This document shows, one piece after another, positions 1,872 to 61,855 of a stretch of DNA of 64,000 nt. This DNA comes from Calditrichia bacterium (lineage in GTDB: Bacteria > Calditrichota > Calditrichia > RBG-13-44-9 > J075), in assembly GCA_020635015.1 (NCBI GenBank), contig JACKAP010000006.1, forward strand, positions 76,998-140,997, given 5' to 3'. Made by a program: the position numbers and the translations under genes. Each line of letters opens with the position of its first letter. The first letter of the stretch is position 1. A model generated the notes under the pieces. That model searched no databases. It was not told the origin of the DNA and saw only the letters and a list, made by a program, of their open reading frames with translations.

Positions 1872-1937
1872 TTGTGGGTGATTGGTTGTTGGGTAAGATA
1901 GGTCTTTGCCAATGACCAATGACCAATCACCAATCGC
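1872..1937. repeat. Inverted heptamer arrays (GGTTGTT / CCAATCA-type) flanking the core TAAGATAGGTCTTTGCCAA
   Basis: gtgattggttgttgggTAAGATAGGTCTTTGCCAAtgaccaatgaccaatcaccaatc. Related copies are at 5541-5624 and 20792-20855. Confidence 0.8.
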
Positions 1938-2020
1938 AGTTCCTTAAATCTAAAGAACTTAGTGTGCCGTGTAGCAGTGTTTAAAAAAATTTAACCCATA
2001 AAACCGAGAGGCTTGCCGGC

Positions 2021-3217
2021 GTGGATTCCAAGAAAGCGGAACAGCGTTACCTGGATGAAATATCACTTCTGACCAGCAAGGAAGTGGAAGACTATATCCT
2101 GCTCAACCTGAAAAGGATCCGGGAGCGCCGCCGCAAGTTCGATATTCCGGTGATCGGCATTGCCGGTTCAGAGGGAAAAACCACCACCAAGCGGATGCTT
2201 TCGGCCATCCTGCGCCCGGCCCACCAGGTGTTGGAGACCCCGCCCAACTGCTCGACCGCCTCCGGGGTAACCGCCACCCTGCTGGAGATGAACCAGACCC
2301 ATCAATACGCCCTGCTGGAACTGGGGATTGTCAAATCCAAACAGTTTGAACTGGCGGTGCAGGTCGCCGAACCGACCATCGCCGCGATAACCAACATCGG
2401 AGAGGCGCATCTGGCCAACCTGGGCGATAAATACCACATCGCCGATGCCAAGGTCGAGCTGATCAAGCGTCTGCCCCCGGATGGCTATGCGGTGCTGAAT
2501 ATCGATGATGACCTGGTCAGCGAGCTTGCCGCCCATTCGACCAGCCGGAGGGTGATCAAGTTCGGCTTAAATAAAAATGCCCAATTCTTTGCCAATAAGA
2601 TCGAATATCTGGGGCCGGAGGGAATCCGCTTTCACGTGAACGGCTTTTATCCCTTCCACATGCCGATTTACGGTTCTGCCTCAATCTATAATGCCCTGCT
2701 GGCGATTTCGGTGGCCCGGTTGCTGGAGATCGAATTTGAGGAGATCCAGGAAGGGCTGGAGCAGCGTTTTTCCCTGCTCGATCACACCGGCAATCTGACC
2801 CGCCGCGACAATATCAATATCCTCGATTATACCTACGATGCCTCGATCAACTCAGTCACCAAGGCCTGCGAGTCGCTGGCCCAGTTTAAACCCTTCTCGG
2901 AAAAGCTGATCCTGGTGATCGGCGATATCCGCAATCCCGGGCCGGATGTGGCCGGCACCCACCTGAAAATGGGCTACTATATCGCCGCCCAGCCGATCGA
3001 TGTGGTGTTGACCATCGGCGAGGATGCCCGCCTGATCGGCGAGGGAATCCGGCGACTCAATCACACCAAAAAGATCGTGGAATGCAGCGGCGATGCACCC
3101 ACGCTTCTGGAGCGGCTCGCTGCCCACCTGACCCCGAACAGCACCGTGCTGTTTATCGGCAGCAAGGAGCTGCACCTGGAGGATACGCTGCAGGCGCTGC
3201 TGAAGATGATTGGGTGA
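2021..3217 (+). CDS. Mur ligase family protein (MurF/FolC-like ATP-dependent amide ligase)
   Basis: Mur-ligase P-loop 'VIGIAGSEGKTTTKRML'; GTG start at 2021; 398 aa. Confidence 0.75.
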   Translation: MDSKKAEQRYLDEISLLTSKEVEDYILLNLKRIRERRRKFDIPVIGIAGSEGKTTTKRMLSAILRPAHQVLETPPNCSTASGVTATLLEMNQTHQYALLELGIVKSKQFELAVQVAEPTIAAITNIGEAHLANLGDKYHIADAKVELIKRLPPDGYAVLNIDDDLVSELAAHSTSRRVIKFGLNKNAQFFANKIEYLGPEGIRFHVNGFYPFHMPIYGSASIYNALLAISVARLLEIEFEEIQEGLEQRFSLLDHTGNLTRRDNINILDYTYDASINSVTKACESLAQFKPFSEKLILVIGDIRNPGPDVAGTHLKMGYYIAAQPIDVVLTIGEDARLIGEGIRRLNHTKKIVECSGDAPTLLERLAAHLTPNSTVLFIGSKELHLEDTLQALLKMIG

Positions 3218-3327
3218 ATGGGTTAATGGGTGGATGGGTTAATGGGTAAGAACGGATGTACGTCAACTGATTTTACACCCATTCACTCATTCACCCATTC
3301 ACTCATTCACCCATTCACCCATTCACG
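3212..3327. repeat. Mirrored heptamer tracts: G-rich (TGGGTGA/TGGGTTA)n followed by C-rich (CCATTCA)n; large hairpin and G-quadruplex potential
   Basis: gggtgaatgggttaatgggtggatgggttaatgggtaag ... cccattcactcattcacccattcactcattcacccattcacccattcacg. Confidence 0.8.
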
Positions 3328-3438
3328 TTTTTTATATTCCCCCATTGTAAATATCCCATAAAAGCTTTACCTTTAACTCTTTCGAGCCGGAAATGTCAGA
3401 ATTTATTGTGTTGATTTTTTTGAAGTTAAAGGTTTTGT

Positions 3439-4056
3439 ATGATTCACCAGGACATTCACTTTGACACGCCCCACACCCGCACCATCCATAGCGCCGTGGA
3501 AGCGCTGGAAAAGGGCGGCAGCATTATTTATCCCACGGATACGGTCTATGGGATCGGATGCAGCATTTACCGCAAAAGTGCGATCGAACGGCTCTACAAG
3601 ATCAAGGGAAAGTCGAAGTTCGATCCCATGAGCCTGATCTGCAACTCCATCCAGCAGGCGGCGGAGTATGCCCAGATTTCCAATACCGTCTTCCGGATTC
3701 TCAAGCGTTGTTTTCCAGGGCCATACACCGTGGTGCTGCCCGCCAAGCACGGCATTGCCAAGCTGATGCTGTCGCGCCAGAAGGAGATCGGTATCCGCAT
3801 TCCGGACAGCCCGGTTTGCCAGATGCTGGTAGAGGGATTGGGCCACCCGCTGCTCAATACCTCGGTGAATGTATTCTTTGACGAAGACTGGTTTGATGAG
3901 GGGGAAGACACTGAAAAATTTCTCGATTTCGCGGAAATTTTTCTCGATGCCGGCCCGCTTCCGGAAAGTCGGGAATCGACCGTGGTGAAGATCCACGATC
4001 ACGAGATCGAGATTCTCCGCGAGGGCAAAGGGGATCCGGAGGTGTTGTTTTATTGA
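3439..4056 (+). CDS. tsaC: L-threonylcarbamoyladenylate synthase (YrdC/TsaC family)
   Basis: 'IIYPTDTVYGIGCS' and the overall YrdC fold pattern; 205 aa. Confidence 0.85.
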   Translation: MIHQDIHFDTPHTRTIHSAVEALEKGGSIIYPTDTVYGIGCSIYRKSAIERLYKIKGKSKFDPMSLICNSIQQAAEYAQISNTVFRILKRCFPGPYTVVLPAKHGIAKLMLSRQKEIGIRIPDSPVCQMLVEGLGHPLLNTSVNVFFDEDWFDEGEDTEKFLDFAEIFLDAGPLPESRESTVVKIHDHEIEILREGKGDPEVLFY

Positions 4057-4099: not shown

Positions 4100-4180
4100 G
4101 TAGGGTAGGGTCGCGACCCTACCCTACGCGCGCGAATGGTGCAAACATCCAACATCCAACATCCGACATTCGAAACATCA
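4100..4180. repeat. REP-like perfect palindrome GTAGGGTAGGGTCGCGACCCTACCCTAC followed by an (ACATCCA)n tract
   Basis: Seen directly in sequence. A second copy of the palindrome is at 60768-60792, also immediately after a stop codon. Confidence 0.8.
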
Positions 4181-4579: not shown

Positions 4580-4582
4580 CGC

Positions 4583-5540: not shown

Positions 5541-5624
5541 GATCGTTGTTGGTTGTTGGCTTTTGGTTAAAGACCAAAGACCAACAACCAAGGACCAACA
5601 ACCAAGGACCAACAACCAACAAGG
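5541..5624. repeat. Inverted heptamer arrays (GGTTGTT)n ... (CCAACAA/CCAAGGA)n
   Basis: gttgttggttgttggcttttggttaaagaccaaagaccaacaaccaaggaccaacaaccaaggaccaacaaccaacaagg. Confidence 0.8.
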
Positions 5625-7194: not shown

Positions 7195-8601
7195 TTGTCA
7201 ATGGATACGGTACTTAGTCAAATATTTCTCTATCTGGCCAGCATATACATGATCAATGGCATATTGATCAATATCTTTCGCCGTTTGAAGTTAGCCGATT
7301 TTATCGCTCACATATTGACCGGGATCGTCTTTAGCCTGTTGCTGATGGGGTGGGGCGAGTTTTTCGGCAGCGCGGGAACCGCCCCGTTTAACCACAACGG
7401 CCAGCTGGATCTTTTCTTTCGCCAATCCCAGTTGAACAGCGCTGCGGCGGAAGGGGATACGCTGAATCCGGTGCTGTCGCCGGACAGCGCCGCCATGCCG
7501 GTTGCCGGGGAAACAAATGCCCGGGTCGATGCGCTGCCGCCGGAAATCGCGGCGGCGGATAATCCCGACGCCCACTTCCTGCTGCTGATCAAATTCATGA
7601 TCACGGTTGGGTTGCTGCTCTTCCTGATGCAGTTGGGGCTGAACTTTGATCCCCGGTTCTTCCGGATGAAGAAGGAGGAGAACACCTGGCGCCAGGTGGG
7701 CATCTTCGCCGGCCTGACCGCGCTGATCGTCGGTCTGAGCAGCTACTTCCTGGTGCTGGAGCGCGACCTGCTGCTGTCCGGCCTGACCGTGATCGCTTTT
7801 CTCAGCATCCACATCGGTGCGGTGCTCTCCTATAATTTCCCAGTCTCCGCCCGCATGCAGCGGCCTTTCATCTTCCTGATCCAGTTGGCGATCCTGCTGG
7901 ATATTATCGTGATCGGCATCTATTCCGCCCTGGAAATTTATGTCAAATATCAAAATTATACCTTTTCTAAGCATGGTATTCACGGCATCTATTTGCTGAT
8001 CCTGCTGTTGTTCGTCATCCCGATTGTCTTCAACAAGGCCTCCGTCGCCATCTTCAAGACCTTATCCAAATGGATGGGAGAATATACCCTACTGCTCAAA
8101 CTGGGTATCCTGTTTTTCTTCTTTTATGCCGGCTTCCAGGCGGAGCTGTCGGTGCTGCTGCTGGGATTGTGGGCGGGACTGCTCTTCAATGCCCTGATGG
8201 ACATCTCCGAATTCGAATTTCGCCAGAAATTTTTTGCCGGGGCTTCGTTTCTTTATATCCTGCCGTTTGTCGAAATCGGGCGCTCATTGTTTTTTGGCGA
8301 ATTATATCAGCGCGGGTTTTGGATACACCTGGGGGTGATGATCGGTGCTCTGGTGCTGGTTTCCCTGGTGATGGGATTTCTCCAGCGGGGTGAACGGCAA
8401 TATCCGCTGGTCATTTCCGCCGGAACCTTTCCGCGGGGCGAATTGACCGTGTTGATCATCTGGCTGTTCAAGGAGATCGGCTGGATCCCGCTTTCGGTGT
8501 TTACCCTGCTGGTGGTGGTGGTGATCGTCACCAATCTGATCGGGACGGTAATGGGAAAGATCTTGTTCATCCGGCCGCTGCGGCGACAGATGCGCACCTG
8601 A
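7195..8601 (+). CDS. Polytopic membrane protein, cation/proton-antiporter-like
   Basis: At least 10 hydrophobic helices with an Ala/Pro-rich insertion; the family call is weak. Confidence 0.45.
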   Translation: MSMDTVLSQIFLYLASIYMINGILINIFRRLKLADFIAHILTGIVFSLLLMGWGEFFGSAGTAPFNHNGQLDLFFRQSQLNSAAAEGDTLNPVLSPDSAAMPVAGETNARVDALPPEIAAADNPDAHFLLLIKFMITVGLLLFLMQLGLNFDPRFFRMKKEENTWRQVGIFAGLTALIVGLSSYFLVLERDLLLSGLTVIAFLSIHIGAVLSYNFPVSARMQRPFIFLIQLAILLDIIVIGIYSALEIYVKYQNYTFSKHGIHGIYLLILLLFVIPIVFNKASVAIFKTLSKWMGEYTLLLKLGILFFFFYAGFQAELSVLLLGLWAGLLFNALMDISEFEFRQKFFAGASFLYILPFVEIGRSLFFGELYQRGFWIHLGVMIGALVLVSLVMGFLQRGERQYPLVISAGTFPRGELTVLIIWLFKEIGWIPLSVFTLLVVVVIVTNLIGTVMGKILFIRPLRRQMRT

Positions 8602-9560: not shown

Positions 9561-9593
9561 ACCGCATCCAGCATCCAGCATCCAGCACCGAGC
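9561..9593. repeat. (GCATCCA)n heptamer tract
   Basis: accgcatccagcatccagcatccagcaccgagc. Confidence 0.8.
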
Positions 9594-9652
9594 AAATTAA
9601 CCCGTTCAGGGGATAGCATTCATAAAAACAATTTTGTATATCTCAACTGATT

Positions 9653-11005: not shown

Positions 11006-12294
11006 AGCGATATGAGAAGCTGGTCTTTTGGATGACGCTAGTGCTGTTGAGCTCAACCGTATTGGCGCAAATTTCCAACCGCTTCCGCAACCGCGAAGCC
11101 GGCGTGCCATTCTTTGAGGCCAAGGTGCTGGAGACCTACTCGGAAGCAGAGGGCAAACTGCTGGCGCGGGCGTTTATTCAGATCGTCAACGACGATCTCA
11201 CCTTCGTAAAGAGCGGGGATGGCTTTCAGGCTGAAGTGCAGATCGAGATTTACCTGCGCCACAAAAGCAGCGATTTTGTGTTTAACCGTACCATTACCCA
11301 AAGCGTTTATACCGAGGATTTTGCCAGAACCAACGATCAGAATATCGTCAATACTTTTTCGACCGATATGGAAGTGGAAGAGGGTGAATATGAGGCGACC
11401 ATCACCGTGCTGGACCAGAATAATAACGAGCAATATACCCGACGCACCAGTTTCAACATCAGTGGCACCAATGCGGTCGATGCCGACCTGATGGTGGGAG
11501 ATATTCTCTTCTTCGACGAATTCCGCAGCGACGAAAACGGGGAAATTGCCGAGTTCAACCCCAAGCTGGATAATAATTTTTCCAGTGACAGCAAGCATCT
11601 TTACTGCTATTTCAACACCTTTACCCGTGATACCACCTCGGAAATGACCGTCGATTATGTGGTGCAGGATGACCGGGGACTGGTGGTACAGCAGAACCAG
11701 TATGTCATTTCCAGCCCGGAAAAGGGTTATCAGGATCATTACATCCGCCTCAACCGCTACTATTTTAGCCGCAACGATTACGCAATCAACATCAAGGTCT
11801 CCTACAATGGTAAATCGGTGCAGCGTACCGCCCGGTTCGGCTTTTACTGGCAGTTCGTTCCCGGAACGGAAAAAGATCTCGATCTGGCGATCAAGCAACT
11901 GCGTTATATCGCCAAGGAAGATTCGATCAAGTACTACCTGAAGAAAGGCAGCTATGAGGAGAAAAAGGCCTTTTTCCAGCGCTTCTGGGAGAGCAAAGAT
12001 CCCAATCCCGATACCGAGGCCAATGAGCTGATGGAGGAATACTATCGCCGGATCAACTATGCCAACGGGCAGTTTTCCTCATCCGGCCTGGGGGGCTGGA
12101 TTACCGACCGCGGGCGCATTTTCATCAAATTCGGCCAGCCGGATGATGTGGAGCGCCATCCCTTCGAGGCGAATTCCTATCCCTACGAGATCTGGCGCTA
12201 CTATTCGTTGCAGAAAAACTTCCTGTTCATCGACCGCACCGGCTTCGGCGATTATGATCTGCATCCGTCGTATTATTATGTGGAATATGAGTGA
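11002..12294 (+). CDS. GWxTD domain-containing secreted protein
   Basis: Signal peptide and a C-terminal 'GWITDRGRIFIKFGQPD...YEIWRY' GWxTD motif. Confidence 0.8.
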   Translation: MKRYEKLVFWMTLVLLSSTVLAQISNRFRNREAGVPFFEAKVLETYSEAEGKLLARAFIQIVNDDLTFVKSGDGFQAEVQIEIYLRHKSSDFVFNRTITQSVYTEDFARTNDQNIVNTFSTDMEVEEGEYEATITVLDQNNNEQYTRRTSFNISGTNAVDADLMVGDILFFDEFRSDENGEIAEFNPKLDNNFSSDSKHLYCYFNTFTRDTTSEMTVDYVVQDDRGLVVQQNQYVISSPEKGYQDHYIRLNRYYFSRNDYAINIKVSYNGKSVQRTARFGFYWQFVPGTEKDLDLAIKQLRYIAKEDSIKYYLKKGSYEEKKAFFQRFWESKDPNPDTEANELMEEYYRRINYANGQFSSSGLGGWITDRGRIFIKFGQPDDVERHPFEANSYPYEIWRYYSLQKNFLFIDRTGFGDYDLHPSYYYVEYE

Positions 12295-12295
12295 G

Positions 12296-12580
12296 GTGTT
12301 TGCTCGCTTCGCTCGCGATGTTAGTTCGCTTCGCTCACGATGTTTGCTCGCTGGCGCTCGCGATGTTTGCTCACTTCGTTCGCGATATTTGCGCTTCGCG
12401 CGATATTTGTTCGCTACGCTCACGATGTTTGCGCTTCGGGCGTCATGGAACGAAGAATACCTACTCCTCGATACTCGCAAGGTACCGCGCGAAGCGCAAA
12501 TATCGCTCACGAAGTGAGCAAACATCGCGCGAAGCGCAAATATCGTGAGCGACAGCGAGCAAACATCACTCAAATGCCAA
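12296..12580. repeat. Array of about seven degenerate 21-23-bp direct repeats (GATGTTTGCTCGCTTCGCTCGC-like) followed by three or four inverted copies
   Basis: Seen directly: units abut with no spacers, then GCGCGAAGCGCAAATATCG... in reverse-complement. It lies between convergent genes. Confidence 0.8.
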
Positions 12581-39269: not shown

Positions 39270-39287
39270 GGCGAATTCTCCTGAAGA

Positions 39288-39719: not shown

Positions 39720-39731
39720 AGTGATGACTCC

Positions 39732-40604: not shown

Positions 40605-40611
40605 ACCGTAT

Positions 40612-45545: not shown

Positions 45546-45562
45546 GAAAGGTAACCGACTTA

Positions 45563-46798: not shown

Positions 46799-46826
46799 TG
46801 CATAAGTCATCATCCTGTAAATACCG

Positions 46827-46924
46827 TTGCATGGGGCATGGGGCATGGTGTATTACAGTGCGAGTGTCGACGTATACGCTAGCACATGACGGCGCCATGC
46901 GCTTTGCCCTTTGCCCCATGCAAA
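46827..46924. repeat. MITE-like palindromic element copy 1 (TTGCATGGGGCATGGGG ... CCCCATGCAA)
   Basis: Terminal inverted repeats GCATGGGGCATGGGG / CCCCATGC with an internal TATTACAGTGCG core. Copies are at 52773-52856 and 58702-58798. Confidence 0.85.
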
Positions 46925-47074
46925 AGCCGTCCCCAATATCCAGTCCCCGGCACGAACGAAAATAAGTATGCTAGATATACACATTTTTTTTGTATGTTGC
47001 TGATGAGACGGGGCGATCTGCGGGTCGCCTTTGTTTTTTGGCAGCATGATGTTGATTGATGAAGAGGAGTCAGG

Positions 47075-48190
47075 ATGATATTTGGCGTTCCGCTCGAAAT
47101 TCGCACCCATGAGCACCGGGTGGGCGCGGTGCCGTCGGTGGTGCATGAATTGGTCGGTCTGGGCCATCAGGTGCTGGTGGAGGCCAAAGCCGGAGAAAGA
47201 AGCGGGCACAGTGATGCCGATTACGCTGCGGCCGGTGCCACCATCGTGCCCTCGCCGGAGAAACTCTACTCTCAGGCGGAAGCGATCCTGAAGGTGCGTG
47301 GCCCGATTCCGGTTGAGTACGACTTGATCCGCCCCGACCACATCCTCTTCGGCTTCTTCCGGTTTTTTAACCGCCCGGAGAAAACCCTGGCCCTGCTGGG
47401 GCGGGGATGCACCTGTTACGCCTACGAAATGTTCAAAACCCGAGACAATCGCCGCCCGCTGCTGGATATCGACTGCCGGATTTCCGGACAGGTGGCGGTG
47501 CAGCAGGGAAGCACCTATCTGATGACCCCGCACGGGGGCCGGGGCGTGCTGCTGGGACGAATTCCGTTTGGCGACCCGCTGAATGTGACCATCCTTGGCC
47601 TGAGTGTCGCCGGGATCAGCGCAGCGGAGTTCGCCGCCCAAAACGGCGCCCGCATCAACATCATCGATCATGATGAAACCCGCTTTGAAGAAGCGGCTTC
47701 CCACCTTCCGGAGGATGTGCGTTTGCTGAAATTCTCACCGGAAACCCTGCAGGAGATGCTGCCGCGCACCGATCTGCTGATCAGCACCCTGCAGGAGGTG
47801 GAGGATCTCTCGCCGGTCGTGCTGAGCAAGGCGGAGGTTGGGCTGATGCCTCCCGGATCGGTGTTGGTGGATCTGGCGGCGGACTTTGGCGGCAGTGTCG
47901 AAACCAGCAATCCCACCTCCCCGGATAATCCCACCTTTGTGGTTGAGAATGTGATCCATTACTGCGTGCGCAGCCTGCCCAGCATGGTAGCGGCGACCGC
48001 TTCGGAAGCGCTCAGCAATGCGCTGTTGCCCTACCTGATTCGTTTCTGTGAAGCGGGATTTGTGGAAACCCTCAGAGCTAACGAGGAACTGGCCACCGGG
48101 CTGGTCTTTTTTGAAGGCTGGGTCACCCACGAAAAGCTGGCGGAGACCCTGGGTGTCAAGTATGTCGATTTCCGGGAGAGCGGTGAGTAA
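47075..48190 (+). CDS. Alanine dehydrogenase/PNT family protein (Ald-like) with divergent dinucleotide-binding loop
   Basis: N-terminus 'MIFGVPLEIRTHEHRVGAVP...HQVLVEAKAG' is collinear with AlaDH. The glycine loop reads 'ILGLSVAGISAA' (GxSxxG) instead of GxGxxG. Confidence 0.7.
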   Translation: MIFGVPLEIRTHEHRVGAVPSVVHELVGLGHQVLVEAKAGERSGHSDADYAAAGATIVPSPEKLYSQAEAILKVRGPIPVEYDLIRPDHILFGFFRFFNRPEKTLALLGRGCTCYAYEMFKTRDNRRPLLDIDCRISGQVAVQQGSTYLMTPHGGRGVLLGRIPFGDPLNVTILGLSVAGISAAEFAAQNGARINIIDHDETRFEEAASHLPEDVRLLKFSPETLQEMLPRTDLLISTLQEVEDLSPVVLSKAEVGLMPPGSVLVDLAADFGGSVETSNPTSPDNPTFVVENVIHYCVRSLPSMVAATASEALSNALLPYLIRFCEAGFVETLRANEELATGLVFFEGWVTHEKLAETLGVKYVDFRESGE

Positions 48191-49478: not shown

Positions 49479-49604
49479 GGGGGACGAAGGGTGAAGGATG
49501 AAGGATGAAGGATGAAGGATGAAGGATGAAGGATGAAGGATGAAGGATGAAGGATAAAGGATAAAGGATGAAGGATAAAGGATGAAGGATGAAGGATGAA
49601 GGAT
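49479..49604. repeat. (GGATGAA/GGATAAA)n heptamer tract, about 17 units
   Basis: gggggacgaagggtgaaggatgaaggatgaagg...ggataaaggatgaaggataaaggatgaagg. Confidence 0.9.
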
Positions 49605-49991: not shown

Positions 49992-51149
49992 TTATCCGAA
50001 CAAGCGGGAGTCTGACACCTCCGGCTCCTGGCTGGAGACGGTTTCCATGTAGGTCTTAATGAATGAAGGGCGGAAGATCTTGCGGTCGAAACCGATATTG
50101 CCCTCATCAGCCAGATTGCGGATCAATTGTTTATAGGATTTGAAGGCCCGGACTTTCACATAAAACGGAATCCAGCGCAGGGGAAACTTCAGCGGTCCCA
50201 GCACCAGCCGCTGCCGCCCGAGATGCTTTTCCAGGTTACCGGGGTTGAGGTAGTTCAGCAGATGGGCCGCCCCCTGATCGACCAGCGCCCGGTATCCTTT
50301 CAGCATCGCCCGTTCGTGAAGGAGATGCTCTTCGATTTGCTGGTGAATATAGTTCAAGCGCCGGTCGGCTTCTTCCGGGGTGATGTCGGCATCATACAGA
50401 TAAGCCTGAAGCTCTTCCGGGGTGGATAAATGCAGGGGCTGGTCGCTGATGACCGTGGCGATTTCCATAAATTGCCGGCGGAATTTGGCCGCTTCTTTAG
50501 CCAGTTCGATCAGGGCGTTAAATAAAATCTCTTCGGTCTTGCGGGGGTTGTAGGGGGGACCCGCTCTTTCCGCAGGTGGTGCCGGCTGCGCCGGGGCCGG
50601 GGGAGCTTCCGGGAAAATGGCCGCGAGCATGGCGCGGATCTCCTCTCGGCTGACCGCGCGGCGGGTGAGGGCGTCATCCAGCGCACCGCGCATCTCGCTT
50701 TCCCGAAGTTCACGCTTTTCGCTGTGGAATTTTTCAGCCAGCTGCTGCAGCAGATGCACCAATTGGCGAATATCTTCCTGGAAGGGATTGAGGTAAGGAG
50801 CCGTTTCATCCGCCCTTCCATTGCGGTGAGGCGCTTCCGGGCGAAATTGATATTCCAGCAAAAATTCCCCGATTTGAATCTTGTCTCCGTTCTGCAATTG
50901 ATAGGGCTGCTCGGCAGCCAGCTTGATCTGGTTGAGATATGTCGCATTGGCGCTTTTGCAATCCACCAGATAATATACCGCGCCCTTCTGCCGAATCATG
51001 GCGTGGCGCCGGGAAACCACTTTCTCCCGGTCTTGCAGTTGCAGGGTGTTGGATGAATGGCGGCCGATCGAGATCAATGCCTGTTCGAACTCCGCCTCCT
51101 GCTGCCAATTTATATCGGATGCCTTCCGGATGTTAAATCTCGCGGGCAT
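49992..51149 (-). CDS. FHA-domain protein with large C-terminal domain of unknown function
   Basis: N-terminal FHA 'ISIGRHSSNTLQL...VSRRHAMIRQKGAVYYLVDCKSANATYLNQ'. Confidence 0.75.
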   Translation of the reverse strand: MPARFNIRKASDINWQQEAEFEQALISIGRHSSNTLQLQDREKVVSRRHAMIRQKGAVYYLVDCKSANATYLNQIKLAAEQPYQLQNGDKIQIGEFLLEYQFRPEAPHRNGRADETAPYLNPFQEDIRQLVHLLQQLAEKFHSEKRELRESEMRGALDDALTRRAVSREEIRAMLAAIFPEAPPAPAQPAPPAERAGPPYNPRKTEEILFNALIELAKEAAKFRRQFMEIATVISDQPLHLSTPEELQAYLYDADITPEEADRRLNYIHQQIEEHLLHERAMLKGYRALVDQGAAHLLNYLNPGNLEKHLGRQRLVLGPLKFPLRWIPFYVKVRAFKSYKQLIRNLADEGNIGFDRKIFRPSFIKTYMETVSSQEPEVSDSRLFG

Positions 51150-51201
51150 GCTTACGCTCCTTTCCCAAAAGTGTGCAAACTATGAACATTCCCCGCCGGT
51201 T

Positions 51202-52692
51202 TTACCGATCGCTTTTTTTAGCATAATCGGGATACCAGGCCTTCATACAGTCGTCGCAGATGCCATGACTGAACTCTGCTTCTGAATGTTCTTGCAAATA
51301 CAGTTCCAATTGATTCCAATATCCCTTATCATCACGTATTTTTTTACATGAGGAGCAGATTGGAATCAATCCCCGGAGCGTTTTGATTTTGGTCAGGGCG
51401 TCACGCAGTTCGCGGATCAACTGTTCTTTGGCAGCTTCCGCCTCTACTCGGTCAGTGACGTCTCGGATGATCGACAGCACCGCTTCTGACCCGCAGGCCA
51501 TGATGCGGTTTTCATAGAATCGTTTTTTGCCATGCACCTGCAGGTCGAATTCGAACACCTGCACCGTGCCGGAATACAGCGCTTTGGAAATATAGCCGAG
51601 GGTTCGCTGGTTGATTTCGCCGGGCAGCAGGTCGTGCAGTCTTTTCCCCGGCAGGTCATCGCCGAACAACGGAATGGTGTTCTTGGGCATCTTGCAGGCC
51701 AGCACTGTGCCGTCCTGGTTTAGCTGCATCATCAGATCCGGTATGGCGTTGAGCAGGGCGCGGTTGGTGACTTCGCTTTGCTGGAGGGATTTCAGGAAGT
51801 TCTCCAGGTTTTCCCGGGAGTTTTTTTCTTTGTGCACGCGCTCGTTCAATATCAGGCGTTCCAGCCCTCCGGCGGTTTGCCGGGCGATGTCGGTCAGCAG
51901 GCGCAGATCGCTGTTGCCGAACTTCTTGGCGGATTTATCCTCGATATACAATACCCCCATCAGGGAATCCTTGCTGCGCAGGGGAACGCAGATGGCGGAG
52001 TGCATTTCCTCCGCCAGGAGCGTATCGGCCGGGTCGGTGCCCGGGTTATATATTGCCGCCTCCCCGTTGCCTAGCACTTGCGCCACCAGCGGCCGGCGGT
52101 AGGAGTCGGAGGCCCCATAGTAAATCTGGCAGTAGGGCATCGGGTCCTGGTCGAACAGCAGGATGGCGCCTCCATCGGCGCCGGTCGATTGACAGGACAG
52201 CTTAATCACCCACTCACAAATGGTATCGATATCATTGGTCTGGTTGAATTTCTGGCTGATCTTGTTGATGATCAGATAGTGCAGATCTACCGTGTTGCTG
52301 GGATCCACGCTGTCGGCCTTCGCTGCGGTTTCGCCGGTGGGCTGATCCTGCGGGATGTCGGCAGCAAAGGTCAGGATGGTAAACCCGACCCGGATCTGGT
52401 CCTGATCGGCCAGGCGGATGCGTTTGATCCGCTCGTCGTTGACATAGGTGTGATTCCGGCTTCCGAGATCTTCAATGTAGTAATGGCCTTTCTCGCGGAA
52501 GATCCGGGCATGACGGCGGGAAACCGTCTCGTCATCGATCGCCAGATCATTTTCGATCTGCTGGGAAAGATCATCTTTCCCGATATATATCTCCTCCTCG
52601 GAGAAGGTGTACGCTTCTTCGCTACCGTTTGGCAGGCGTACCTTTAACTTGGCCATGGGCATCCCTTTGCTGATTCGATCATAATATATCAA
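51202..52692 (-). CDS. FHA-GAF-PAS multidomain signalling protein with C-terminal Cys4 zinc-ribbon-like motif
   Basis: FHA 'IYIGKDD...VSRRHARIFREKGHYYIEDLGSRNHTYVND', a central GAF-like region, a PAS-like region and a C-terminal 'PICSSCKKIRDDKGYW...HGICDDCMKAWYP'. Confidence 0.7.
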   Translation of the reverse strand: MIYYDRISKGMPMAKLKVRLPNGSEEAYTFSEEEIYIGKDDLSQQIENDLAIDDETVSRRHARIFREKGHYYIEDLGSRNHTYVNDERIKRIRLADQDQIRVGFTILTFAADIPQDQPTGETAAKADSVDPSNTVDLHYLIINKISQKFNQTNDIDTICEWVIKLSCQSTGADGGAILLFDQDPMPYCQIYYGASDSYRRPLVAQVLGNGEAAIYNPGTDPADTLLAEEMHSAICVPLRSKDSLMGVLYIEDKSAKKFGNSDLRLLTDIARQTAGGLERLILNERVHKEKNSRENLENFLKSLQQSEVTNRALLNAIPDLMMQLNQDGTVLACKMPKNTIPLFGDDLPGKRLHDLLPGEINQRTLGYISKALYSGTVQVFEFDLQVHGKKRFYENRIMACGSEAVLSIIRDVTDRVEAEAAKEQLIRELRDALTKIKTLRGLIPICSSCKKIRDDKGYWNQLELYLQEHSEAEFSHGICDDCMKAWYPDYAKKSDR

Positions 52693-52772: not shown

Positions 52773-52856
52773 TTGCATGGGGCATGGGGTATTACAGTGC
52801 GGGTCTCGGAATATGCGCTTGCGCATTACGGCGCCATGCCCTATGCCCCATGCAAA
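52773..52856. repeat. MITE-like palindromic element copy 2
   Basis: ttgcatggggcatggggtattacagtgcgggtctcggaatatgcgcttgcgcattacggcgccatgccctatgccccatgcaa. Confidence 0.85.
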
Positions 52857-55708: not shown

Positions 55709-57028
55709 GTGAAAACCGCCTGTATCATCGGCGCCGGCGCCTCCGGTATTACCGCCGCGAAAACCTTCCGGGAGCAGGGAATTGATTTTGACTGCTTTGA
55801 GAAAGGTTCCGGTATCGGCGGCAACTGGCGCTACGGAAACGACAACGGGATGTCTTCCGCCTACCGCTCCCTGCATATCATCTCCAGCAAGTGGAACATG
55901 CAGTATTCCGATTATCCCATGCCGGAAGATTTTCCCGACTACGGCCATCACAGCGATGTACTGCGTTATTTCGAGAATTATGTCGATCACTTTGGCATTC
56001 GCGAGACCATCCGCTTTCATTGCGAAGTGAAAGAGGTGACGCCGCACTCCCGGGATGGCTGGGAGGTGACCCTCGCAGGGGGCGAGCGCCGGAACTATCG
56101 TGCGGTGGTGGTGGCCAACGGCCATCACTGGAATCCCCGCTGGCCGGAATTTCCCGGAAGCTTTCACGGAGAAGCAATCCATTCTCATCATTATAAAACG
56201 CCCGAGGCCTTTGAAGACAAAAATGTGCTGATCGTCGGGATCGGAAATTCCGCCTGCGATATTGCGGTCGACCTCTCCCGCCTGGCCCGCACGGTGCATC
56301 TTTCTACCCGGCGCAGCGCCTATGTGCTTCCGAAATATGTGCTGGGAATTCCCAATGATCAATGGCTTCATCCGCTGTTCGATTATTTCCCGCTGGCCCT
56401 GCGTCGCACCGCCTTCCGGATATTGGCCTACATGACCGTTGGTAACCAGGAGCGCTACGGCCTGCCCCGGCCCCGCCACAAATTGTTGCAGGAGCATCCC
56501 ACTCTGAATCAGGAATTTTTGTCCTACGTGGGACACGGGCGGATCAAGATCAAACCGGATATCCGCGAACTGCAGGGGGAACGGGTGGGGTTCGTCGACG
56601 GCAGCAGTGAACCGTTCGATACGATCATTTATGCCACCGGCTATAACATCACCTTTCCGTTTCTGAAGCCGGAAGTGTTTACGGTGCAGGACAACCGGGT
56701 ACACCTTTACCGGCGGGTGATCGATCCGGAATTGCCCAACTTGTTCTTCCTGGGGCTGATCCAGCCCCTCGGGGCGATCATGCCCCTGGCGGAGTTGCAG
56801 GCCCGCTGGATCGCCGGGCTGCTGAACGGCGAGATGGCCCTGCCGGACGAAGGGCGGATGCGCCGCGATATCGAGGCCGATCGTTCCCTCCTGCGCCGCC
56901 GCTACACCGACTCCGCCCGCCATACCATCCAGGTGGATTTTTGGGATTATGTGCACCAACTGAAGCGGGAAATGCGGAAAGGGAAGAAGCTTGCTGATAG
57001 GAAAAGGAGGATGAAGGGTGAAGGATAA
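55709..57028 (+). CDS. Flavin-containing monooxygenase (FMO family)
   Basis: 'KTACIIGAGASGITAAK' FAD site and 'VLIVGIGNSACDIAVDL' NADPH site. GTG 55709 is preferred, after GGAG and 2 nt past the upstream stop. Confidence 0.8.
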   Translation: MKTACIIGAGASGITAAKTFREQGIDFDCFEKGSGIGGNWRYGNDNGMSSAYRSLHIISSKWNMQYSDYPMPEDFPDYGHHSDVLRYFENYVDHFGIRETIRFHCEVKEVTPHSRDGWEVTLAGGERRNYRAVVVANGHHWNPRWPEFPGSFHGEAIHSHHYKTPEAFEDKNVLIVGIGNSACDIAVDLSRLARTVHLSTRRSAYVLPKYVLGIPNDQWLHPLFDYFPLALRRTAFRILAYMTVGNQERYGLPRPRHKLLQEHPTLNQEFLSYVGHGRIKIKPDIRELQGERVGFVDGSSEPFDTIIYATGYNITFPFLKPEVFTVQDNRVHLYRRVIDPELPNLFFLGLIQPLGAIMPLAELQARWIAGLLNGEMALPDEGRMRRDIEADRSLLRRRYTDSARHTIQVDFWDYVHQLKREMRKGKKLADRKRRMKGEG

Positions 57029-57175
57029 AGGGCAAAGGATAAAGGGCAAAGGATAAAGGAATAACCTTGATTGACATTGGGACTGGATTTTGTTCTGTTT
57101 CAGCATCCAGCATCCAGCATCCAGTACAACCCATCAACCCATTTACAAAAGAAAAACATCCACCATATCATACAC
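57008..57175. repeat. Composite heptamer block (GGATAAA/GGGCAAA)n-spacer with TTGACA-(GCATCCA)3-(CCATCAA)2 upstream of the SDR gene
   Basis: Same modular order as the IR-L block upstream of the S9 peptidase. Confidence 0.85.
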
Positions 57176-57946
57176 ATGCAACCAAAAACCATCTTCATCA
57201 CCGGCGCCGCTTCCGGGATCGGAGCGGCTACTGCCCGCAAGTTTCACGCGCAGGGCTGGTTTGTAGGTTTATATGATCTGAATCCCGCTCCGCTGGCTGA
57301 GTTGCAGCGCTCCCTGGGCACGGAAAACAGCTGCTTCATGGCCTTGGATGTACGCGACCGGGAGGCGGTGGCAGCGGCGATGGACCACTTCGGGGCGCAC
57401 AGCGGGGGGAGGATGAACCTGCTGTTCAACTGTGCCGGGATCATCGGCATCGGCCCCTTCGAGGACCTCCGGCTGGAAGATCACCTGCGTACGGCGGAGG
57501 TGAATTTTCAGGGGGTGCTCAACTGCACGTTTCTGGCTTTTCCGTTGCTGAAAGCAACTCCCGGCGCGCGGGTGGTCAGCATGTCCTCCGCCTCGGCCCG
57601 CTACGGCACGCCGGACTTTGCCAGCTACTCGGCCAGCAAATTCGCGGTGCGCGGCCTAACCGAAGCGCTGAATATCGAATGGCGCCGGCATGGCATCGTG
57701 GTCAGCGACATCATGCCTCCATTCGTTAATACCCCGATGATCCAGAGCGGGCCGGCCAGCAAGAGTTTCGAGCGGATGGGCATCCGTCTCAGGCCGGAGC
57801 AGGTGGCTGAGGTGGTCTGGAAAGCCGCCCGGGGAAACAAGGTGCACTATCCGGTCGGTTTGCAGTTCAAACTGCTCAACGCCCTCTCGGCCGTTTCGCC
57901 TGACTGGCTGACCCGCCGGGTGATGCGCTGGATTGGGGGATATTAG
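57176..57946 (+). CDS. Short-chain dehydrogenase/reductase (SDR)
   Basis: 'IFITGAASGIGAATA' and 'YSASKFAVRGL' (YxxxK). ATG 57176; upstream codons of the listed ORF translate repeats. Confidence 0.85.
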   Translation: MQPKTIFITGAASGIGAATARKFHAQGWFVGLYDLNPAPLAELQRSLGTENSCFMALDVRDREAVAAAMDHFGAHSGGRMNLLFNCAGIIGIGPFEDLRLEDHLRTAEVNFQGVLNCTFLAFPLLKATPGARVVSMSSASARYGTPDFASYSASKFAVRGLTEALNIEWRRHGIVVSDIMPPFVNTPMIQSGPASKSFERMGIRLRPEQVAEVVWKAARGNKVHYPVGLQFKLLNALSAVSPDWLTRRVMRWIGGY

Positions 57947-58701: not shown

Positions 58702-58798
58702 TTGCATGGGGCATGGGGCATGGCGCCGTAATATGCAAGCGCATGGTCCGACACCCGCACTGTAATACACCATGCCCCATGCTCCTGGCCCCATGCAA
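58702..58798. repeat. MITE-like palindromic element copy 3 (central core inverted relative to copies 1 and 2)
   Basis: ttgcatggggcatggggcatggcgccgtaatatgcaagcgcatggtccgacacccgcactgtaatacaccatgccccatgctcctggccccatgcaa. Confidence 0.85.
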
Positions 58799-58875: not shown

Positions 58876-60771
58876 ATGCACGAAGGCGGATTTTTTTATC
58901 AGGCATTTGTTTATCTCAGCGCAGCCGTTGTCTCGGTGCCGGTGGCCAAGCGGCTCGGCCTGGGCTCGGTGCTGGGATATTTGATCGCCGGCATCATCAT
59001 CGGACCTTTTGCCCTGGGCCTGGTGGGGGAGGAAGGGCAGGACGTGATGCATTTTGCCGAATTCGGGGTGGTGATGATGCTGTTTCTGATCGGCCTGGAA
59101 CTGCAGCCGGCCCTGCTCTGGAAGCTGCGCGTGCCGATCCTTGGCCTGGGTGGGCTGCAGGTTGGTTTGACCAGTGCGCTGATCCTCGGTGCGGGAATTG
59201 CTTTCGGACTGGCCTGGCAAACCGCTCTGGCGCTTGGGCTGACCCTGGCGCTCTCCTCTACGGCGATTGTGTTGCAGACCCTGAACGAAAAAGGGTTGAT
59301 GAAAACCGCCGGAGGCCAGAATGCTTTCTCGGTGCTGCTGTTCCAGGATATCGCAGTGATCCCGATCCTGGCGGTGATGCCGCTCCTGGCAAGCGGACAT
59401 GTTGCTGCGGGGTCCGGAGACGGGCATCATGCCGTCACCTGGGTGGAAGGGCTGCCGATCTGGGCCCAGACCGGGGTGGTGCTGGGGGTGGTGGTGATGA
59501 TCGTGCTGGCCGGCCAGTACCTGATCAGCCCCCTGTTCCGCATTATCGCCCGCACCCGCCTGCGGGAAATTTTTACCGCCGCCGCCCTGTTGCTGGTGAT
59601 CGGCATTGCCCTGCTGATGACCCAGGTGGGGCTCAGTCCGGCATTAGGCACCTTCCTGGCCGGGGTGGTGCTGGCCCAGAGCGAATACCGCCATGAGTTG
59701 GAAACCGATATCGAACCGTTCAAAGGACTGCTGCTGGGCCTGTTTTTCATTGCGGTGGGGGCTTCGATCGACTTCAACCTGATCGCCGCCGATCCCCTGT
59801 TGATCACCCAACTGGTGATCGCCCTGATCCTGCTGAAGTTCGTGGTGCTCTTCGTCACCGGTAAGTTTTTCCGCATGAGCCTGGATAATAACCTGCTTTT
59901 CGCCTTTGCCCTGGCCCAGGGCGGGGAGTTTGCCTTTGTGCTCTTCTCCTTTGCGGTGCAGAATCAGGTGATCCCCCCGGCGGTGGCCAATCCGCTGATC
60001 GCGGTGGTGGCAGTCTCCATGGCCCTGACCCCGCTGCTGATGCTGATCAACGAGAAGCTGATCCAGCCGCGCTTCGGCACCACCGAGAAGGCTGCCCGGG
60101 CCGCCGATGAAATCGATGAACAGAGCAAGGTGATCATCGCCGGCTTCGGCCGGGTGGGCAGCACCGTCGGCCGCTTTCTGCAGGCCAACGGGGTGCAGGC
60201 CACCTACCTGGATATCGATCCGGACAATGTCGACCTCCTGCGCAAGATGGGGCTGAAGGTATTTTACGGCGACGCCTCGCGCCATGACCTGCTCCATGCC
60301 GCCGGGGCCGGGGAAGCGGAACTGCTCATTGTGGCGGTGGACGATCCCGTCAAAACCCTGGCGATCGTGGAAACCGCCCGCAAGCACTATCCCAATCTGA
60401 AGATCATGGCGCGCAGCGTGGGCTGGACCGATTCCTACGATCTACTCGATGCCGGCATTGGCGATGTCTACCGCGAGACGCTCGACTCCGCCCTGCGTAT
60501 GGCGGCAGATGCCCTGCACCGGCTGGGATTCCGCCGCCATCAGGCCATGCGGGCGGTCAAAACTTTCCGCCGGCATGACGAGCGCTACCTGCGCGAGCTG
60601 GCCGCGATGCGCCACGACAGCAAAGCGCTGATCCGGGGCGCGCGACAGCGAATCGAAGACCTGGAGAAACTCATGCAGGAAGAGAGTGAGAATGTCGGCA
60701 AGCACAAAGACCTCGGATGGGATGCGACGACATTGATTGAAGAGTATGGAAAAATGCAATCGGATTCGTAG
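58876..60771 (+). CDS. kefB: Glutathione-regulated potassium-efflux antiporter KefB/KefC (CPA2 + KTN/TrkA-N)
   Basis: CPA2 membrane domain and 'VIIAGFGRVGSTVGRFL' KTN NAD-binding domain; 631 aa. Confidence 0.9.
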   Translation: MHEGGFFYQAFVYLSAAVVSVPVAKRLGLGSVLGYLIAGIIIGPFALGLVGEEGQDVMHFAEFGVVMMLFLIGLELQPALLWKLRVPILGLGGLQVGLTSALILGAGIAFGLAWQTALALGLTLALSSTAIVLQTLNEKGLMKTAGGQNAFSVLLFQDIAVIPILAVMPLLASGHVAAGSGDGHHAVTWVEGLPIWAQTGVVLGVVVMIVLAGQYLISPLFRIIARTRLREIFTAAALLLVIGIALLMTQVGLSPALGTFLAGVVLAQSEYRHELETDIEPFKGLLLGLFFIAVGASIDFNLIAADPLLITQLVIALILLKFVVLFVTGKFFRMSLDNNLLFAFALAQGGEFAFVLFSFAVQNQVIPPAVANPLIAVVAVSMALTPLLMLINEKLIQPRFGTTEKAARAADEIDEQSKVIIAGFGRVGSTVGRFLQANGVQATYLDIDPDNVDLLRKMGLKVFYGDASRHDLLHAAGAGEAELLIVAVDDPVKTLAIVETARKHYPNLKIMARSVGWTDSYDLLDAGIGDVYRETLDSALRMAADALHRLGFRRHQAMRAVKTFRRHDERYLRELAAMRHDSKALIRGARQRIEDLEKLMQEESENVGKHKDLGWDATTLIEEYGKMQSDS

Positions 60772-60823
60772 GGTAGGGTCGCGACCCTACCCACACCCCT
60801 CAACCCCTCAACCCATCAACCAT
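60768..60823. repeat. REP-like palindrome GTAGGGTAGGGTCGCGACCCTACCC (copy 2) followed by a (CCCTCAA/CCATCAA)n tract
   Basis: It overlaps the kefB stop codon (TAG), the same arrangement as 4100-4180. Confidence 0.85.
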
Positions 60824-60842
60824 AACACGGAGCACATACATC

Positions 60843-61790
60843 ATGTCCCCCAAAGTCCACGGCATCCATCACGTTACTGCCATGGCCGGCGATCCCCAGC
60901 AGAATGTCGATTTTTATGCCGGCATTCTCGGGCTGCGCATGGTCAAAAAGACCGTCAATTTTGACGATCCGTTCACCTATCATTTTTACTATGGCGATGA
61001 TGCCGGCAATCCCGGCACGATCATGACCTTTTTCCCCTGGAGCTCTGCCGGGATGCGCGGCCGGATCGGCAATGGTCAGTTGAGCGTCACCTCCTTTGCC
61101 GTACCCGAAGGTTCACTGACCTTCTGGGAGGCGCGCCTGAAAGCGCATCGGGTAAAGATCCGGGGTATTTCCGAACGGTTTTCGGAAACGGTGCTCTCGT
61201 TTGACGATCCGGACGGGCTGTTGCTGGAACTGGTGAGTTCGCCGGCCGAGCGCCGTCCGGGATGGGAGAACGGCAGCATTCCTGCCGATCATGCCATCCG
61301 TGGGTTTTACAGCGTCACCCTTTCCCTGGCGGCCTACGAGCGAACCGCCGGTCTGATGACCTCCACCCTGGGTTACCAGGCGGTGGAGGACGCAGACAGC
61401 CGCTTTCGCTATGAATCCGGGACCGGGGGCCCTGGTACCTATGTCGACCTGTTTTGCCAGCCTTCCGCGCCCCGCGGCACGATGGGCGTGGGCGCGGTGC
61501 ACCACGTGGCCTGGCGGATCAACGACGACGAGTCCCAGCTGCAGCTTCGCCGGGAATTGCTCGCCTCCGGATACCAGGTCTCGCCGGTGATGGACCGGAA
61601 CTATTTCCATTCGATCTACTTTCGGGAGCCCGGCGGGGTGCTGTTCGAGGTGGCGACCGATCCCCCGGGTTTTGCAGTTGATGAACCGGCCGAGAGCCTG
61701 GGCCAGTCGCTGAAGCTGCCCCCCTGGCTGGAGAAGGAGCGGGCGTTGATCGAACAGAACCTGACGCCGGTAACGGTGCGGAAACCCTGA
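60843..61790 (+). CDS. VOC-family two-domain ring-cleaving dioxygenase/glyoxalase-like protein (MhqO-like)
   Basis: 'IHHVTAMAGDPQQNVDFYAGILGLRMV' and the second VOC module 'VHHVAWRINDD'. Confidence 0.8.
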   Translation: MSPKVHGIHHVTAMAGDPQQNVDFYAGILGLRMVKKTVNFDDPFTYHFYYGDDAGNPGTIMTFFPWSSAGMRGRIGNGQLSVTSFAVPEGSLTFWEARLKAHRVKIRGISERFSETVLSFDDPDGLLLELVSSPAERRPGWENGSIPADHAIRGFYSVTLSLAAYERTAGLMTSTLGYQAVEDADSRFRYESGTGGPGTYVDLFCQPSAPRGTMGVGAVHHVAWRINDDESQLQLRRELLASGYQVSPVMDRNYFHSIYFREPGGVLFEVATDPPGFAVDEPAESLGQSLKLPPWLEKERALIEQNLTPVTVRKP

Positions 61791-61794
61791 TGAA

Positions 61795-61855
61795 GGGAAA
61801 AGGATGAAGGATAAAGGATGAAGGATAAAGGGAAGAAGAATAGCCCCATTGTTCA
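61795..61855. repeat. (GGATGAA/GGATAAA)n tract
   Basis: gaagggaaaaggatgaaggataaaggatgaaggataaagggaagaag. Confidence 0.85.

Follow-up and report, generated by a model that had tools for sequence, protein, structure and literature searches.

The stretch of DNA analyzed here (the window, 64 kb of a contig assigned to a Calditrichia bacterium) includes numerous tandem arrays of short units located between its genes. A periodicity scan of our own detected 19 arrays with a period of 7 nt and five with a period of 8 nt, as compared to 0.1 ± 0.3 and 0, respectively, in 20 dinucleotide-preserving shuffles; periods of 5, 6, and 9 nt showed no excess over the shuffles in the same scan of the window. Tandem Repeats Finder and the periodicity scan agreed on the presence of tandem arrays at every position named in a preliminary description of this DNA, and the extents are defined as 1872-1935, 3207-3326, 4144-4173, 5545-5622, 9564-9594, 20793-20851, 42957-43371, 45293-45529, 49486-49604, 57008-57142, 60795-60821, and 61789-61831. 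That list was real and incomplete: it lacked the sites at 23341-23364, 36500-36553, and 42831-42854 and the GCATGGG/CCCATGC hairpins at 46829-46920, 52775-52855, and 58704-58796. Copy numbers range from 2.9 to 17.6, and the biggest arrays are (GGATGAA/GGATAAA)x17 (49486-49604), (AGCATCC)x14.7 (43097-43199), and (ATCAACCC)x10.2 (43290-43371).

All 17 array loci are intergenic, as had been proposed for these related units, in a window that is 89.6% coding when each open reading frame (ORF) has its start trimmed out of the arrays, and the overlap with the 3' ends of genes amounts to only 64 array nt. At five start codons (43370, 49605, 5626, 4193, and 60843) an array is in contact with the codon or nearly so, and arrays are located right after stop codons or between convergent genes as frequently as before starts. 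Among the tracts initially said to abut start codons, those at 43370 and 49605 do so with 0 nt in between and that at 5626 is 3 nt away; the tract assigned to 57176 ends 33 nt upstream. Long ORFs, e.g., 43067-45295, run through the arrays and give rise to the periodic pseudo-peptides already reported, of which SIQHPAS has the expected 7-aa period and QPINPSTH has a period of 8 aa, not 7. The public annotation of a metagenome-assembled genome (MAG) holds a spurious 90-aa gene built from such pseudo-peptides. These ORFs and this gene call would be the signs of an artifact, i.e., chance, assembly error, or true coding repeats, an explanation to which we attach next to no likelihood: shuffles yield about 0 arrays, the same arrays recur in independent assemblies from at least seven samples, and the S9 peptidase starts at the ATG located after its array, with more than 100 homologues of similar length aligning over 99-100% of its 641 aa. 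The coding-repeat reading was ruled out because neither period is divisible by 3 and the homologues start after the array.

Most units are heptamers, as first described; those given as CCATCAA and TGGGTGA/CCATTCA are instead the octamers ATCAACCC and TGAATGGG. These octamers are found in the ATCAACCC array mentioned above and as TGAATGGG/CACCCATT at 3207-3326, TGGATGGG at 45293-45346, and ACCCCTCA at 60795-60821. Single mutations join GGATAAA, GGATGAA, GGATGCT, GGATACT, and GGATGTT, as well as the octamers GGATGGGT, TGATGGGT, TAATGGGT, and GAATGGGT into one group, and GGTTGTT, GGTCTTT, GGTCCTT, and GGTCATT into a second one, while GCATGGG defines a third group. The dominant units in the window are GGATRAA, GCATCCA, and GGGTKRAT. 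Variant units are clustered in blocks, and with Tandem Repeats Finder several arrays fit periods of 14, 16, or 24 nt better than 7 or 8 (for the segment 57008-57059, as an example, the match is 92% with a 14-nt period and 76% with a 7-nt period). Both properties can be explained by repeated duplication of blocks of one or two units, since this process gives such a pattern.

We consider it likely that the arrays belong to the long simple-sequence repeats known as short tandemly repeated repetitive (STRR) sequences or LSSR5-11, here with units of 7 and 8 nt and in an uncultured member of the Calditrichota. The heptameric STRR sequences of cyanobacteria were reportedly described by Mazel and coworkers in 1990, with units said to be CCCCAGT, TTGGTCA, and CAACAGT. 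Like them, the arrays in the window consist of several coexisting heptamer families that are tandem and intergenic, and the (CCAATGA)n tract at 1909-1935 is a rotation/reverse complement of TTGGTCA, which we take to be the cyanobacterial STRR2. Unlike them, they belong to a host that is not a cyanobacterium, their dominant units differ, and the reported units of STRR1-3 match no array of the window save the small one at 1909-1935. The canonical unit of CCAATGA, AATGACC, was found three times in loci from other phyla.

A cyanobacterial origin, with STRR accompanied by HIP1, was ruled out, as HIP1 (GCGATCGC) is not enriched in the window (2 occurrences versus 2.75 expected) and the S9 peptidase encoded at 43370-45295 is identical to a 641-aa NCBI protein named "[Calditrichaeota bacterium]". 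This identical protein is encoded on a 12.6-kb contig of MAG GCA_020434175.1, which corresponds to window positions 35530-48173 at 99.1-99.8% identity. The next relative is 90% identical and all others are at most 58% identical. The host is therefore an uncultured Calditrichota lineage with few sequenced relatives.

According to the summary given by MacGregor, Mrazek, Guo and Shah (2007) found that among the LSSR5-11 heptamers are the commonest long simple-sequence repeats (SSRs) in many large genomes, and proposed polymerase slippage (PMC4679880). The window arrays have the attributes of this known class, namely tandem iteration of 7- and 8-nt units beyond chance, exclusion from coding DNA, and length variation by whole units, the latter as seen in metagenome assemblies. 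The same summary puts slippage forward as the driver, gives no specific physiological role as known, and does not name the Calditrichota among the genomes rich in these repeats (PMC4679880). A further difference is that the arrays in the window mostly form polar palindromic composites with conserved loops.

A scan of GTDB genomes for (GCATCCA)3 returned at least 116 stretches from more than 10 phyla; the matches listed include Bacteroidota, Armatimonadota, Chloroflexota, Planctomycetota, Verrucomicrobiota, Desulfobacterota, Calditrichota, and others. Among these listed loci none resembles the window outside the arrays, and a period of 7 accounts for 270 arrays versus at most 25 for any other period, with diverse units. 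GGATACT arrays (12) are often found alongside (GCATCCA)3 in the listed loci L007-L122, and many MAG contigs from other phyla end within arrays.

Palindromic composites and the polarity of their arms

Most arrays are arms of palindromic composites. The expectation that mirrored arrays could form long hairpins was borne out for nine elements (A, B, D, F, K, M, O, I, and J), which fold with z values between -3.7 and -9.7, and no shuffle folds equally well; L, N, and E showed no significant fold. Composites I and J are located on either side of the S9 peptidase gene. Composite I (42957-43369, + strand) consists of TTGATGGGTTAATGGGG, (GGATAAA)x5.7, (GATACTG)x3.6, the core AAAATAAAAATGCTTGTTCAGGTGTGAAAATCGGGTTCATTT, and (AGCATCC)x14.7, followed by a 90-nt unique stretch that includes TTGACC-17-CATATT and by the ATCAACCC array abutting the S9 ATG at 43370 (z -4.1), with G-quadruplex (G4) motifs on the - strand. 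Composite J (45293-45529, - strand) is an inverted copy of I that includes (TGGATGGG)x6.8 beginning on the S9 stop codon, (GATGCTG)x6, the core, CAGTATC, (CCTTTAT)x8.9, and CCCCATTCACCCATCAAC, and ends 34 nt before the ATG of the M16 peptidase gene (z -6.5). Within them, 42957-43137 and 45349-45529 are 181-nt inverted copies that are 86% complementary. The order common to I(-) and J(+) is a GATGCTG array, a 42-nt core, CAGTATC, TTCAACC, a CCTTTAT array, and TTTTCCCCATTMACCCATCAAC, with sharp shared ends at ...CCCATCAAC and divergence beyond. Recombination between the arms of I and J could invert the S9 gene; the inverted allele was not seen in three assemblies spanning one or both junctions. 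The S9 gene and its putative promoter are also located between inner inverted octamer arrays (43291-43346 and 45293-45348).

Two further sets of sister elements are dispersed in the window. Element K (46829-46920) has an arm (GCATGGG)x2.9, a conserved core GTATTACAGTGCG..., and an arm CCATGC/CCCCATGC (z -4.9). Element M (52775-52855), located in a divergent region, is a palindromic sister of K with 82% identity over 79 nt (z -6.1), and element O (58704-58796) is an inverted and likewise palindromic copy of both (z -4.3). Element A (1872-1935), between co-directional genes, is composed of the G/T-rich arm GTTGTGGGTGATTGGTTGTTGGG, the loop TAAGATAGGTCTTTG, and the C-rich arm (CCAATGA)x3.9 (z -4.2); its sister copy F (20793-20851), between convergent genes, is composed of the arm (TTGGTTG)x2.9, the loop TAAGACAGGTCTTTG, and the arm CCAAAAACCAATGCCCAACAACCAA (z -3.7). 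The loop TAAGAYAGGTCTTTGCC is common to A and F, which are 84% identical over 57 nt.

The occurrence of modules with conserved loops or cores at unrelated loci and in both orientations (A/F, K/M/O, I/J), together with the sharp ends of I(-)/J(+), raises the possibility that the primary objects are small mobile palindromes inserted between genes, with the tandem units being arm material only. Such palindromes would be akin to miniature inverted-repeat transposable elements (MITEs) or to repetitive extragenic palindromes and bacterial interspersed mosaic elements (REP/BIME), which are also short, dispersed, and intergenic, are found in both orientations, and have a conserved interior. A MITE containing a minisatellite is mentioned for Porphyromonas gingivalis (PMC4596501). 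Furthermore, one strain contig with flanks 99.7% identical to the window, L123, carries at its positions 7440-7520, in place of window positions 42983-43140, a different module consisting of (TTGATGGG)x5 and the loop TAAAAACGGACGTACGATAAGCGATTTTATATCA, which is like that of element B. This module replaces the GGATAAA and GATACTG arrays and the core in the left half of locus I; it could represent a module exchange or a misassembly, because the scaffold has an N-gap within the octamer array. We regard mobile palindromes as possible, albeit unlikely. No target-site duplications are visible at the borders of K, M, O, I, and J, and no transposase or RAYT gene was identified among the ORFs scanned (20 of the 57 in the window). 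The I/J and K/M/O cores had zero matches in JGI metagenome scans and were not found in the 116 loci from other genomes; E, L, Q, C, and H are single-orientation tracts with neither palindrome nor conserved core. Unlike those of REP/BIME and MITEs, the arms in the window are tandem 7/8-mers of variable number.

The composites are polar. By inspection, the G-rich arm is 5' and the C-rich arm is 3' in 10 of the 10 composites in the window, a polarity that is the same on either strand. An automated count of neighboring arrays of opposite G/C skew gave 4:0 in the window and 19:1 in the 116 listed loci from other phyla (binomial p = 4e-5). Orientation was also biased with respect to genes: counted by hand in the window, the sense strand is G-rich in 11-12 cases and C-rich in 2 near stops, and C-rich in 7 and G-rich in 2 near starts, L and Q being the exceptions to the latter pattern. 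In other phyla the corresponding numbers, which depend on crude ORF calls, were G 46 : C 28 after stops and G 17 : C 42 before starts (Fisher p = 2e-4). Trimmed ORF starts were used in this count; with untrimmed starts 34 of 139 arrays fell inside ORFs, as the ORFs run through the arrays.

An orientation rule of this type was published by Rehm et al. (2015) for the GGGNATC repeats of Xanthomonas and Nostoc, which have their G-rich strand in sense orientation past stops and in antisense orientation ahead of starts and include inverted copies at conserved positions with varying lengths; G4 folding was shown in vitro and the authors found no regulatory role (PMC4692102). The window arrays resemble these repeats in being intergenic, in following the same orientation rule (within 50 nt), in their inverted copies and mixed housekeeping neighbors, in keeping their positions among relatives at differing lengths, and in the prediction of at least four G3 tracts with short loops in four octamer-array motifs. 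They differ in that their unit is neither GGGNATC nor GGGGAYT, the G3 units in the window being octamers of the form GGGTKRAT, and in that the heptamers, which are in the majority, lack G3 runs (PMC4692102).

The potential to form G-quadruplexes, previously attributed to the G-rich versions of the repeats, belongs to the octamer arrays, in which four motifs with at least four G3 runs and loops of at most 7 nt are located at 3212-3246 (+), 43295-43329 (-), 43343-43369 (-), and 60785-60814 (-). The units bearing G3 are the octamers GGGTGGAT, GGGTTGAT, GGGTTAAT, and GGGTGAAT; the heptamers GGATGAA, GGATAAA, and TGGATGC have no G3 runs. These four motifs, and an orientation that matches that of the G4-forming GGGNATC repeats (PMC4692102), are consistent with an explanation in which the G-rich octamer arrays form G4 DNA or RNA, pausing polymerases or recruiting proteins. 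We find this very improbable, since the window includes 8 canonical (G3N1-7)x4 motifs versus 4.6 ± 2.1 in shuffles and the far commoner heptamer arrays have no G3 runs. In addition, a longer complementary array in cis, within about 350 nt, competes for three of the four sites by offering a hairpin arm. The remaining site (60785-60814) shares bases with a GTAGGG/CCCTAC palindrome of its own, and the octamer array at 45293-45346 would need a 13-nt loop.

Element B (3207-3326) begins on the stop codon of the Mur-ligase gene and has octamer arms (TGAATGGG)x5.1 and (CACCCATT)x6.4 separated by the loop TAAGAACGGATGTACGTCAACTGATTTTAC, with a folding energy of -67 kcal/mol (z -9.7). Its hairpin is followed by the T-run GTTTTTTATATT, identified by eye, and B, the sole terminator-like element, probably doubles as an intrinsic terminator. 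A terminator consensus scan over a range that leaves out B was not above shuffle expectation. No T-run is found 3' of elements A, D, F, K, M, and O, the last three of which have 5'-TTTT and AAAA-3' on their flanks. Element D (5545-5622) consists of an arm (GTTGTTG)x3.4 followed by a higher-order C/A-rich arm (ACCAAGGACCAACA)x3.4 and ends 3 nt before the ATG at 5626 (z -4.3).

The remaining loci are less elaborate. Locus C (4100-4173, + strand) includes the palindrome GTAGGGTAGGGTCGCGACCCTACCCTAC and then (AACATCC)x4.3, ending 19 nt before the ridA start codon at 4193. A comparable arrangement is found at 60768-60821 (+ strand), where the second copy of the palindrome GTAGGGTAGGGTCGCGACCCTACCC is followed by (ACCCCTCA/ACCCATCA)x3.4, 21 nt before the ATG at 60843. 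The two copies of this 25-nt palindrome (4100-4127 and 60768-60795, versus 0 expected), which is made of short tandem GTAGG/CCTAC units, are both located directly 5' of a C-rich array (4144 and 60795) and a gene start. Array E (9564-9594, + strand), (GCATCCA)x3.4-4.4, is situated 3 nt past a stop codon and 58 nt before a MiaB-like gene (z -1.3). Locus G (23341-23505), in a divergent intergenic region, comprises GAAGGAGGAAGGATAAAGGATAAA, an internal hairpin, and degenerate octamers CCCATTCACCCATATACC, with the array itself at 23341-23364. Locus H (36500-36553, - strand) consists of 7.7 degenerate CCGCCCT/CCGCACT units where a decarboxylase gene has its 3' end; the sense (-) strand is the G-rich one, and the locus is identical in L123. 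A short array of GATGCTG/GATACTG (3.4 copies, 42831-42854) is located upstream of the S9 gene within the divergent region. Array L (49486-49604, + strand) extends from 7 nt past a stop codon to the ATG of a MerR-family gene at 49605 and is unstructured (0 kcal/mol). Array Q (61789-61831, + strand), (GATGAAGGAAAAAG)x3.1 or (GGATRAA)x4.7, begins on a stop codon, with 46 nt separating its end from the following ATG.

Composite N (57008-57142, + strand) includes (AGGATAAAGGGCAA)x3.7, a spacer with TTGACA, (CAGCATC)x3.4, and CAACCCATCAACCCAT, 33 nt before the start codon at 57176 of a putative SDR gene, a label read from the N-terminal sequence only. Its order is like that of I (GGATAAA tract, spacer, GCATCCA tract, octamer); the spacer differs and there is no hairpin (z +0.2). 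The recurrence of this modular order upstream of the S9 and 57176 genes had been pointed out and stands, except that at the S9 gene the TTGACC hexamer is found between the GCATCCA and octamer tracts and not between the GGATAAA and GCATCCA tracts.

Length variation between strains and regulatory potential

Besides the window, the analysis covered metagenome-assembly contigs of near-identical strains, and all strain comparisons derive from consensus assemblies. The contigs come from seven samples, are 98-99.8% identical to the window, and permitted comparison of 0.9-12 kb per strain. They were retrieved by exact-protein look-ups in ENA, Logan, and NCBI assemblies, in which the M16, RidA, P0001, and P0002 queries gave matches; the S9 start at 43370 and the genes 60843-61790 and 57176-57946 had no match in these look-ups. 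All six aligned indels fall in an array or at an array border, and no indel was found in the unique DNA compared. Contig L002 lacks 14 nt at 45459, in the CCTTTAT array of J; L123 lacks 14 nt at 45353, in the GATGCTG array of J; L005 lacks 7 nt at 46902 and 15 nt at 46840, both in element K; L001 lacks 3 nt at 49482, at the border of array L; and L128 has at least one additional ACATCCA unit at 4144. As predicted for a substrate of slipped-strand mispairing, unit number differs by 7 or 14 nt between near-identical strains, and slippage-driven length change is supported.

About 80% of the array-by-strain comparisons were identical among strains with 0.2-1% flank divergence. With every indel in or at an array and most arrays the same at this divergence, turnover is therefore faster than point substitution and far slower than that of classical contingency loci. 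In a relative with 89% identity the octamer array still touches the S9 ATG and the GATGCTG array is still located after the stop codon, with different unit numbers, and the downstream octamer array is reduced to about 1.5 units. Contigs from six samples stop inside arrays; the short-read contigs L001 and L002, for instance, terminate inside array L.

The suggestion that the tracts are phase-variable promoter or untranslated-region elements was not supported in the form given. In the consensus scan of the window no array overlaps the -35/-10 spacer of a promoter-like site, and none is inside a reading frame once starts are trimmed; classical phase variation by promoter spacing or frameshift is ruled out by these positions, and phase-variable regulation in the classical sense is unlikely. 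Neighbor genes with a family hit (8 of the 17 loci) code for S9 and M16 peptidases, alanine dehydrogenase, RidA, a MiaB-like protein, a Mur ligase, KefC, a MerR regulator, and a urea-transporter/M23 fusion, and these count as housekeeping types; surface, virulence, and restriction-modification genes are not among them. Moraxella uspA2, with its AGAT repeats, is given as an example of a phase-variable contingency SSR in MacGregor's article (PMC4679880). The window arrays are like the contingency SSRs of host-adapted pathogens in that tandem repeats precede a start codon and change in number by slippage; unlike them, they are found at many housekeeping genes, largely stable, outside promoter spacers, and equally after stops.

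A subtler form of regulation can be envisaged, in which the number of units in the 5' leader sets the expression of the downstream gene as a copy-number rheostat or contingency device, heritable and reversible through slippage. Rho or ribosomal protein S1 could load on leader arrays that are rich in C and free of G, (ATCAACCC)10 being one of them, and GGATGAA arrays could provide AAGGA Shine-Dalgarno-like motifs. The arrays at or near five start codons, the differences in unit number between strains, and the non-random orientation are compatible with this explanation, as is the promoter-like TTGACC-17-CATATT at 43245-43273, which would set the full octamer array (80 nt) in the S9 leader. The 7-bp repeats upstream of Haemophilus influenzae hmw1A and hmw2A, a further example of contingency SSRs reported by Dawid and coworkers in 1999, are said to grade expression. 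A rheostat is nevertheless improbable: most arrays are the same in strains 0.2-1% apart, the family-hit neighbors are housekeeping genes, as many arrays are located after stops or between convergent genes, and promoter-like matches in the window number 15 versus 12.1 in shuffles, which is not above expectation. The I/J core has a TTCRCA-16-TATTTT sequence aimed at the CCTTTAT side in both copies, which is a lead only.

In support of a role at start codons one can also cite MacGregor (2015), who described TAACTGA arrays in Beggiatoaceae, Cyanobacteria, and Bacteroidetes a few nt upstream of start codons and proposed that they bind a post-transcriptional regulator; these repeats form mixed heptamer assemblages, show 7-nt differences between strains, and are found at the ends of draft contigs (PMC4679880). 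The window arrays share the proximity to starts, the mixed units, the 7-nt steps, and the contig breaks, and differ in that no TAACTGA array was detected in the window by Tandem Repeats Finder or our own scan, in being equally frequent after stops, and in being mostly palindromic (PMC4679880). We are highly doubtful of a more far-reaching proposal in which the arrays would be working parts of the dispersed palindromic modules and their polarity would reflect a shared transcript function. In this proposal G-free, C-rich leader arrays of adjustable length, like the 80-nt (AUCAACCC)10 right in front of the S9 start codon, would be where Rho, S1, or some dedicated binder loads; housekeeping genes in many free-living phyla would have unit number as their heritable rheostat; and the I/J core would carry an outward-facing promoter from place to place.

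Other features of the window and significance of the arrays

Several features of the window are separate from the arrays. The dnaA gene is located at 15568-17037, and the cumulative GC skew climbs monotonically over the 64 kb with no switch near dnaA. Rfam families and tRNAs had no match in the window. A neighborhood rich in signaling genes (29364-32855, 18315-20753, and 49992-52692) encodes a 1163-aa TPR-CHAT protein, an 812-aa Ser/Thr kinase, and two FHA-domain proteins; element F adjoins the 3' end of the kinase gene and element M is upstream of the second FHA gene. The region 37900-39719 (L123 2371-4190) includes genes for an ATP-grasp protein (weak ATPgrasp_Ter hit), a PqqD-family protein, and two small/uncharacterized proteins beside an Orn/DAP decarboxylase gene, and may be a small peptide-modification cluster similar to those for ribosomally synthesized and post-translationally modified peptides. 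At 35268-35819 a 276-nt tandem duplication (74% identity) is found within the gene of a protein with four Big_7 Ig-like domains, a coding domain repeat distinct from the intergenic arrays. Finally, the region 12290-12575, between convergent GWxTD-domain and BlaR1/M23 peptidase genes, contains a cluster of repeats of about 20-22 nt (CGCGATRTTTGCKCRCTTCG...) in approximately six direct and four inverted copies, which folds as a 286-nt hairpin (-161 kcal/mol, z -12.7). This is a separate REP/BIME-like repeat family and does not represent a 7/8-mer array.

In the explanation that we favor, these long simple-sequence repeats would gain and lose units through slipped-strand mispairing or unequal recombination. 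The palindromic modules may have spread by recombination or by a MITE/REP-like process, with their arms being homogenized together. Selection at the transcript level would then limit the tolerated orientations, keeping leaders G-poor and unstructured and hairpins between genes, and the arrays would mostly be tolerated by-products, not switches. Some considerations weigh against this interpretation. Conservation of position and unit in the relative with 89% identity, along with the strict polarity and the contact of arrays with start codons, could equally fit a positive function. Metagenome assemblies can collapse or mis-join repeats, as illustrated by the N-gap of L123 inside one array; the gene models behind the orientation counts in other phyla are crude; and the genome-wide extent first claimed for the family is an extrapolation from 64 kb.

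The class of repeats to which the arrays probably belong is already established, and what is new here is the phylum, Calditrichota, and the unit sequences; how widely the polarity rule applies and how the arrays are packaged in palindromic modules may add to what has been published. In practical terms, the arrays break short-read assemblies and cause spurious ORFs and extended gene starts in public annotations, and unit-number markers derived from them separate strains that are more than 99% identical. The polarity rule, published for one repeat family in Xanthomonas and Nostoc, appears to be broad, which suggests a general transcript-level constraint or function.

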